Position numbers and translations under genes: made by a program. The notes beneath the pieces are model-generated. The model was not told where the DNA came from and searched no databases. It worked only from the letters and a program-made list of their open reading frames with translations. 64,000 nucleotides of DNA from Escherichia coli (GTDB lineage: Bacteria > Pseudomonadota > Gammaproteobacteria > Enterobacterales > Enterobacteriaceae): the NCBI RefSeq assembly GCF_003334765.1, contig NZ_QOWT01000012.1; one strand, written 5' to 3'. Every line of letters starts with the position of its first letter. Position 1 is the first letter of the stretch. Positions 42,679 through 43,875 of this stretch are shown in pieces.

Positions 42679-43875
42679 ATGGCTCAAGTTATTAATGAAA
42701 TGGATGTTCCGTCCCATTCGTTTGTTTTTCATGGTACAGGTGAGAGATATTTTCTTATTTGTGTGGTGAATGTGTTGTTAACGATTATAACGCTAGGTAT
42801 CTATTTACCATGGGCATTAATGAAATGTAAGCGTTATCTCTATGCTAATATGGAGGTTAACGGACAACGATTTTCTTATGGGATTACCGGTGGGAATGTT
42901 TTTGTTAGTTGTCTTGTTTTTGTTTTTTTCTATTTCGCAATCTTAATGACAGTGTCAGCAGATATGCCGCTTATTGGCTGTGTTTTGACTTTGTCACTGT
43001 TGGTTTTGCTTATATTTATGGCAGCAAAAGGACTGCGTTATCAGGCCTTGATGACTAGTCTCAACGGCGTAAGATTTAGTTTTAATTGCTCTATGAAAGG
43101 GTTCTGGTGAGTAACCTTTTTCTTGCCGATTTTAATGGCCATTGGGATGGGGACTGTTTTCTTTATCTCGACAAAGATGCTACATGCCAATAGTTCAAGT
43201 AGTGTTATTATATCTGTGGTTCTGATGGCAATAGTTGGTATTGTTTCCATTGGTATTTTTAATGGTACTTTATATAGCCTGGTAATGAGTTTTCTCTGGA
43301 GCAATACCAGTTTCGGTATACATCGTTTCAAGGTGAAATTAGATACTGCGTATTGTATAAAATATGCCATCCTCGCATTTTTAGCTTTATTACCTTTTCT
43401 CGCTGTTGCTGGTTATATTATCTTCGATCAAATATTAAATGCGTATGATAGTTCTGTGTATGCAAATGATGATATTGAGAATTTACAGCAATTTATGGAA
43501 ATGCAACGTAAAATGATAATCGCGCAGTTAATCTATTATTTTGGGATTGCTGTTAGCACCAGTTATTTAACGGTGTCGTTGCGAAATCATTTTATGAGCA
43601 ACCTGTCACTGAATGATGGGCGTATTCGTTTTCGCTCAACTTTAACTTACCACGGTATGCTTTATCGCATGTGTGCGTTGGTAGTGATATCCGGGATTAC
43701 GGGCGGTCTGGCTTATCCACTGCTGAAAATATGGATGATTGACTGGCAGGCAAAAAATACGTATTTGCTGGGCGATTTGGATGACCTTCCTTTAATCAAT
43801 AAAGAAGAACAACCAGATAAAGGCTTCTTAGCCAGTATTTCACGGGGAATTATGCCTTCTTTACCATTTCTGTAA
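42679..43875 (+). pseudogene. yjgN: Inner membrane DUF898 protein YjgN, interrupted by an in-frame TGA at 43108-43110
   Basis: Two consecutive ORFs (ending 43110; restarting 43123) are in the same frame; together they give ~398 codons of a polytopic membrane protein if the TGA were a sense codon. Confidence 0.7.

Follow-up and report, generated by a model that had tools for sequence, protein, structure and literature searches.

The yjgN gene in the 64,000-nucleotide stretch of Escherichia coli DNA analysed here (contig NZ_QOWT01000012.1, assembly GCF_003334765.1; hereafter the window) is very probably an ordinary inherited pseudogene produced by one nonsense mutation. A G-to-A transition at position 43110 turned Trp codon 144 (TGG) into the opal stop TGA; ribosomes starting at 42679 would then terminate after 143 residues, and the product would lose most of the predicted transmembrane helices together with the invariant C-terminal residues of the family. 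The allele is inherited, on a single haplotype block that ~5% of complete E. coli genomes share. Like this strain, a similar fraction of sequenced E. coli (~5%), among them the Shiga-toxin lineages O26:H11 and O103, has no intact copy of this uncharacterised inner-membrane protein. The allele is already on record in public annotation.

The yjgN reading frame and its internal stop

Translation of positions 42679-43878 in a single frame gave a yjgN reading frame on the plus strand (42679-43875) of 398 codons and a stop, broken by one internal stop at codon 144 (TGA, 43108-43110; context AAA GGG TTC TGG TGA GTA ACC TTT TTC TTG CCG). A program-made list of open reading frames (ORFs) contained an upstream ORF (42652..43110, plus strand), in frame with ATG 42679 and ending in CSMKGFW-stop, and a downstream ORF of 250 amino acids (aa) from a TTG start (43123..43875, plus strand) in the frame of the same ATG. 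A sequence-only reading of the window had held that these two ORFs share one frame, are split by the TGA and together make up the expected DUF898 membrane protein of ~398 codons. It was accurate to the base on the first point, and the 398-codon frame bore out the second: with Trp restored at codon 144, the protein matched Pfam DUF898 (PF05987) over residues 13-369 of 398 (E = 4.5e-47) and showed 98% full-length identity to the principal E. coli YjgN cluster (P0001). Since the restored pieces match both the family and this cluster, the split ORFs are not a chance pair. PF05987 was carried by all 109 homologues found, and no NCBIfam model matched YjgN. Profile and orthologous position thus place the locus in the DUF898 family, but it does not encode one uninterrupted polypeptide of ~360-400 aa, and it is a pseudogene of the YjgN/DUF898 family rather than a protein-encoding member. 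Gene callers report two fragments here, which should be merged as one pseudogene.

The window is E. coli chromosomal DNA. Over its full length it aligned with positions 3854152-3918151 of record NZ_CM136999.1 (strain HSP425) with 2 mismatches in 64,000 positions, none of them in yjgN, so the HSP425 annotation could be read directly in window coordinates. It gives the local order argF(-), rraB(+), yjgM(-), yjgN(+), valS(-); the order yjgM-yjgN-valS was also found in O26:H11, ML35, K-12 and AH04. The features of the locus are as follows.

42679..43875, plus strand: yjgN, pseudogene of a DUF898/YjgN family inner-membrane protein (translation; Pfam; annotation by the NCBI Prokaryotic Genome Annotation Pipeline, PGAP, at identical coordinates in HSP425)
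43108..43110, plus strand: premature opal stop TGA at codon 144, from TGG (Trp) via G-to-A at 43110 (sequence; K-12; 55-mer counts)
42679..43107, plus strand: N-terminal remnant of 143 aa, predicted to be translated, with modules 1-2 and the beta-hairpin of module 3 in the structural model (translation; hydropathy; AlphaFold2)
43111..43875, plus strand: C-terminal remnant of 254 codons, predicted to be untranslated, with the ORF from TTG 43123 and residues R302, S320 and P347 (ORF list; alignment)
42578..42607, plus strand: promoter-like TTGCCA-N18-TATTGT 5' of yjgN (consensus scan; unique exact match in the window)
43885..43908, either strand: GC-rich hairpin between the convergent yjgN and valS, terminator-like on both strands (terminator scan on both strands)

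The state of codon 144 was surveyed in 5426 complete E. coli genomes using 55-base queries in which 27 bases flank the site to either side, a design that forced the 28-base megablast seed across it. The TGA version was found in 238 genomes and the TGG version in 4366, so that TGA accounts for ~5% of the ~4604 genomes typed; yjgN itself was found in 4630 of the 5426 genomes and was absent from 796. In the alignment with K-12, the codons TGG GTG stand where the window reads TGA GTA. TGA is the derived, minority state and TGG the ancestral, majority one, in agreement with the Trp-to-opal change put forward in the sequence-only reading, which had pointed to this codon in other genomes as the place to look; the window's own haplotype also occurs with G, in five genomes considered below. 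At least 30 genomes were 100% identical to the window across the whole of yjgN, and the identical gene was present in O26:H11 11368, O103 RM8385, O157:H16 98-3133, ML35 and UMNF18. The TGA 55-mer was likewise found in porcine O139:H1, NCTC9087 and O20:H12, and porcine enterotoxigenic E. coli are among the carriers. Since the same allele occurs in many independently assembled genomes, a sequencing error is ruled out.

Public annotation takes the same view of the locus. In each of the 11 TGA-carrying RefSeq records opened, PGAP labels yjgN a pseudogene and remarks on an 'internal stop', and the RefSeq description, 'YjgN family protein, pseudogene, internal stop', coincides with the pseudogene call made from the sequence alone. 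Compared with the RefSeq pseudogene allele (ECO26_RS34420 in O26:H11 11368; C1I23_RS22585 in ML35; ACQ2G9_RS19040 in HSP425), the window was the same across the whole gene, with no difference between the alleles, and the neighbours argF, rraB, yjgM and valS were also the same. The intact K-12 YjgN (WP_000079634.1, 398 aa) shares locus, length, frame and promoter-like hexamers with the window, at 97.3% identity over the 2.4 kb aligned (41971-44335) and with 29 substitutions within yjgN; whereas K-12 has TGG at codon 144 and a full protein, the window has termination after residue 143. The hexamers at 42578-42607 are unchanged from the TTGCCA and TATTGT listed for the K-12 yjgM/yjgN spacer (PMC3946193).

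Haplotype background and age of the TGA allele

With G at 43110, the yjgN of the window would be 100% identical to that of AH04, AH02, CT01, CX08 and CX12, in which the annotated product of the G-bearing haplotype is an intact YjgN family protein (WP_032301158.1). Between 40300 and 47300, AH04 differed from the window only at 41976, 42016, 42643, 43110 and 46924. Since the gene on the AH04-type background is identical except for the G, one G-to-A transition accounts for the allele. All five intact-haplotype genomes differ from the window at 41976, 42643 and 46924, positions at which the sampled TGA genomes of the same haplotype match it; they look like a sister or ancestral haplotype, not like revertants nested among TGA strains.

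Of 10 additional TGA genomes set against the window, nine had its haplotype and the tenth (TUM9757) a different one. Among the nine, the gene was identical in six, one carried E377K and two shared a synonymous change at P393; none of these sampled same-haplotype genomes had a second disabling lesion in yjgN. Since almost no further changes have gathered in the same-haplotype carriers, the TGA allele is evolutionarily young, and because of this youth the open downstream frame is uninformative about selection. Across the nine genomes there were only 2 extra substitution events in yjgN compared with 4 in the 5.8-kb flanks, a comparison of few events.

Identity between the window and O26:H11 11368 varied along the sequence, being 99.94% over 33671-54591, 99.84% over 29284-33672 and 98.0-98.7% over 4192-29241. 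The TGA allele thus travels on a block common to both, which spread through shared descent of the segment or through recombination. The likeness to O26:H11 11368 (loci L004 and L005) is mosaic, with a block of ~25 kb ending at the tRNA-Leu gene (leuX) that is common to otherwise more distant strains. The site serves as a clean lineage marker, a single-nucleotide polymorphism that tags a shared haplotype block around valS.

TUM9757 carries the same stop on another background. In this strain (locus L017, where 4597-5793 corresponds to window positions 42679-43875), TGA occupies codon 144 on a haplotype resembling that of sequence type 131 (ST131), with 10 differences from the window in yjgN and 98.5% identity over 8 kb. 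The TGG version of the TUM9757 gene is 100% identical to the intact gene of O157:H16 Res13-Lact-PEA12-26 and one base from that of many other genomes. The nearest sites that distinguish TUM9757 from the window are 43093 and 43247, i.e., 17 bp 5' and 137 bp 3' of the stop, and the allele may have arisen there either by an independent G-to-A mutation or through a conversion patch of at most 153 bp. Since one site was searched and 24 different transitions in yjgN would create a stop, the recurrence in TUM9757 cannot be called significant.

Consequences of the truncation and alternative readings

We aligned 24 full-length homologues, taken both from further genera of enterobacteria and from more distant bacteria, Sinorhizobium and Shinella among them. 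All 24 were uninterrupted, at 363-400 aa, and the invariant residues F217, R302, S320 and P347, together with the nearly invariant T341, G343 and L344, all lie after residue 143. The sequence-only reading would have been contradicted by reference YjgN proteins ending at codon 144; no such protein occurred among these homologues, whose invariant residues lie downstream of it. Position 144 itself is not invariant: it is W in the closest relatives; in more distant homologues, which read on beyond it, the residue is W, L, N, V or another sense residue. Hydropathy placed the stop directly before a hydrophobic segment (145-163), which is lost along with those at 176-194, 231-249 and 331-349; peaks at 25-43 and 98-116, the latter within a hydrophobic stretch at 68-116, are retained in the N-terminal remnant. 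An AlphaFold2 model built on a 25-sequence alignment (mean predicted local distance difference test score 84.5, predicted template-modelling score 0.80) showed five repeats, each made of a beta-hairpin and then a helix pair. In this model the N-terminal remnant comprises strands 12-17, 58-67 and 126-135 and helices 21-56 and 71-124, and codon 144 falls within a predicted transmembrane helix (139-167) of the third repeat, so that the 143-aa product would end within a structural unit. In all, the predicted product loses 255 of 398 residues (~64%). The lesion thus has what is expected of a nonsense pseudogene, i.e., a stop where orthologues have the ancestral sense codon, removal of conserved sequence and a base that is real.

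Other E. coli lineages have lost yjgN by different routes. IS1 interrupts the gene in genomes H187-H190, one of which is an ST131 strain, and a listing for S. sonnei places insertion sequence (IS) elements in the yjgN-yjgM interval (PMC12795559). Truncated 'partial' forms of the protein represent 553 (P0020) and 859 (P0021) member sequences, and the presence of yjgN varies among ST131 clades (bioRxiv 10.64898/2025.12.08.692488). The inactivated alleles of E. coli and Shigella thus represent independent losses of the same gene (IS1, a 36-aa in-frame deletion in P0004, absence in 796 of 5426 genomes); whereas these are insertions or deletions, the lesion in the window is a single-base nonsense change with the remaining sequence kept. 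In K-12, lptFG alleles have been moved with the help of yjgN::tet as a linked selectable marker (PMC9544173), and the sole yjgN phenotype found in the literature is one line in the table of a C. elegans dauer screen (PMC5153853). Since yjgN is monocistronic, lying between the divergent yjgM and the convergent valS with a terminator-like hairpin 3' of it, no polar effect of the stop is expected. The gene is dispensable and has been lost repeatedly in E. coli, and the TGA allele adds to the evidence for both. We infer that the truncated YjgN is non-functional and that its loss is neutral or nearly so.

Several points weigh against an ordinary pseudogene. The frame, the promoter-like site and the start codon are all intact, and transcription with some translation past the stop is possible. 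Of the three stop codons, UGA leaks most in E. coli, and read-through at codon 144 would insert the ancestral Trp. Finally, the TGA of TUM9757, on another haplotype, could hint at more than a single neutral accident.

This last point bears on the proposal that truncation was favoured in some lineages, which would account for the same TGA on two haplotypes and in ~5% of genomes. TUM9757 does carry TGA 144 on an ST131-like haplotype whose TGG form is intact elsewhere, and other lineages have inactivated yjgN by IS1, by deletion or by complete absence. However, a conversion patch of the size given above, derived from the common TGA haplotype, explains TUM9757 equally well, and its recurrence was seen at a single site, without comparison to others, in a gene where so many transitions give a stop. 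The frequency of ~5% can in turn be explained by clonal expansion of successful lineages together with the shared block. We therefore consider adaptive loss unlikely.

A leaky allele, in which occasional decoding of the UGA by Trp-tRNATrp yields a few per cent of wild-type YjgN, would make the mutation a knock-down rather than a null. The K-12 RF2 (release factor 2) is a weak variant, and other strains usually leak less; moreover, there are leakier contexts than UGA followed by G, which is the one found here. An unbroken frame 3' of the stop, together with the intact promoter-like site and start codon, is compatible with such an allele, but the youth of the allele explains the unbroken frame equally well. 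In K-12 reporters, read-through of UGA via Trp-tRNATrp was ~2% at 37 C and ~4% at 25 C, its level being set by competition between Trp-tRNATrp and RF2 (PMC10570021). A search 3' of the UGA for a structure resembling a selenocysteine insertion sequence (SECIS) or otherwise stimulatory found none: the 81 nt from 43100 to 43180 folded at -18.1 kcal/mol, the mean for shuffled sequences being -16.5 (z = -0.58), and the only sizeable hairpin in this fold begins 32 nt past the stop. Stimulated read-through and selenocysteine insertion were rejected as candidates, the fold after the UGA being no more stable than shuffles. No known RNA family lies near the stop, the nearest Rfam matches being REP/naRNA4 (repetitive extragenic palindromic, REP) elements at 47335-47506. 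A stop used for programmed read-through would be conserved in orthologues; this one is present in 238 of ~4604 genomes and breaks none of the 24 aligned homologues, so nothing suggests programming. Basal read-through, which may occur here, is a general property of UGA and not a feature of the codon 144 site. The caveat in the sequence-only reading, that the gene is a pseudogene unless the stop is read through, therefore holds for a low-level leak and for nothing beyond it, and a leaky allele that acts as a knock-down seems quite improbable. A further reading is likewise doubtful: opal 144 would have had at least two origins, one within the common A/B1-type haplotype and the other within the ST131-like one of TUM9757, and might persist because a little Trp-tRNATrp read-through yields the exact wild-type protein, so that the allele would be no dead gene but a natural knock-down that lowers YjgN dosage and ties it to growth state.

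It is very hard to credit that the 143-aa piece and a C-terminal piece restarted at TTG 43123 or ATG 43135 assemble into a working YjgN. The ORFs do lie in one frame, 12 nt apart, the downstream ORF is still open in every TGA genome sampled, and termination-reinitiation across such a distance is known in bacteria. On the other hand, pairing with the anti-Shine-Dalgarno sequence was -3.0 kcal/mol at TTG 43123 and +0.3 at ATG 43135, no better than the random mean of -2.1, compared with -5.1 at the real start, and no ribosome-binding site above background preceded TTG 43123, ATG 43135 or ATG 43147. The break falls five residues into predicted helix 139-167 and not between modules, and none of the 109 homologues has a naturally two-gene yjgN; each of the five short homologues that were read (P0018, P0020, P0021, P0023 and P0033) proved to be a copy of the full-length protein in truncated or degraded form. 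An internal duplication that would let the halves work apart was also considered and rejected: the model has repeats, but the stop lies inside a helix of module 3, and BLASTP of residues 1-143 against 145-398 detected no relationship (best E = 2.9). An internal promoter-like site at 43184-43211 was likewise set aside as being at chance level, with 3 sites found against 5.5 expected.

A sequencing or assembly error, or recoding of the UGA as selenocysteine, has next to no likelihood, since beyond the bare fact of an in-frame TGA nothing favours either, while the identical allele recurs in all 238 independently assembled carriers (at least 30 of them identical across the whole gene), no hairpin stands directly 3' of the UGA, position 144 was ancestrally Trp, and an in-frame stop or U appears there in none of the aligned homologues. 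The ordinary inherited pseudogene accordingly remains the reading that we prefer.

Other observations in the window

Several features elsewhere in the window were recorded. The REP-type repeats that score as Rfam naRNA4 occur at 47280-47575 (the holC-pepA spacer), 14150-14228 and 20391-20468; the holC-pepA spacer contains two Rfam copies, which lie within a ~100-bp tandem array detected by self-BLAST. Rfam also matched Ysr276 antisense within pepA (48340-48534) and a Mg riboswitch 5' of mgtA (30645-30760). The treR gene (29528-30478, minus strand) is flagged by PGAP as 'incomplete, missing N-terminus', yet ATG 30475 gives MQNRLTIKDIARLSGVG... and a frame open to the stop; the flag is probably an annotation quirk and not a real truncation.

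Two regions differ in content from O26:H11. In the ytfP-ppa interval (~12108-12237), the chpS-chpB toxin-antitoxin pair of O26:H11 11368 is absent from the window. The tRNA-Leu gene (Rfam match 54507-54588, annotated 54507-54591) is followed by an island unlike that of O26:H11, which runs to position 64000 and carries a 636-aa site-specific integrase (54682-56592), a NIPSNAP protein, a frameshifted DUF1643 gene (58063-58529), a small recombinase, an AbiJ-NTD4 domain protein (62439-63263) and, at the window end, a transposase fragment.

Finally, a 503-aa hypothetical protein (ORF 38666-40177, upstream of argF) occupies the position of K-12 yjgL, and an 8-bp tandem repeat, ATATATRA, extends for 7.1 copies (40154-40209) over its stop codon. 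In some strains PGAP calls the gene at the yjgL position intact, in others 'frameshifted / internal stop'. Among 10 strains with otherwise nearly identical flanks, the ATATATRA tract ranged from 44 to 84 bp, and it looks like a hypervariable variable-number tandem repeat at the end of the gene.
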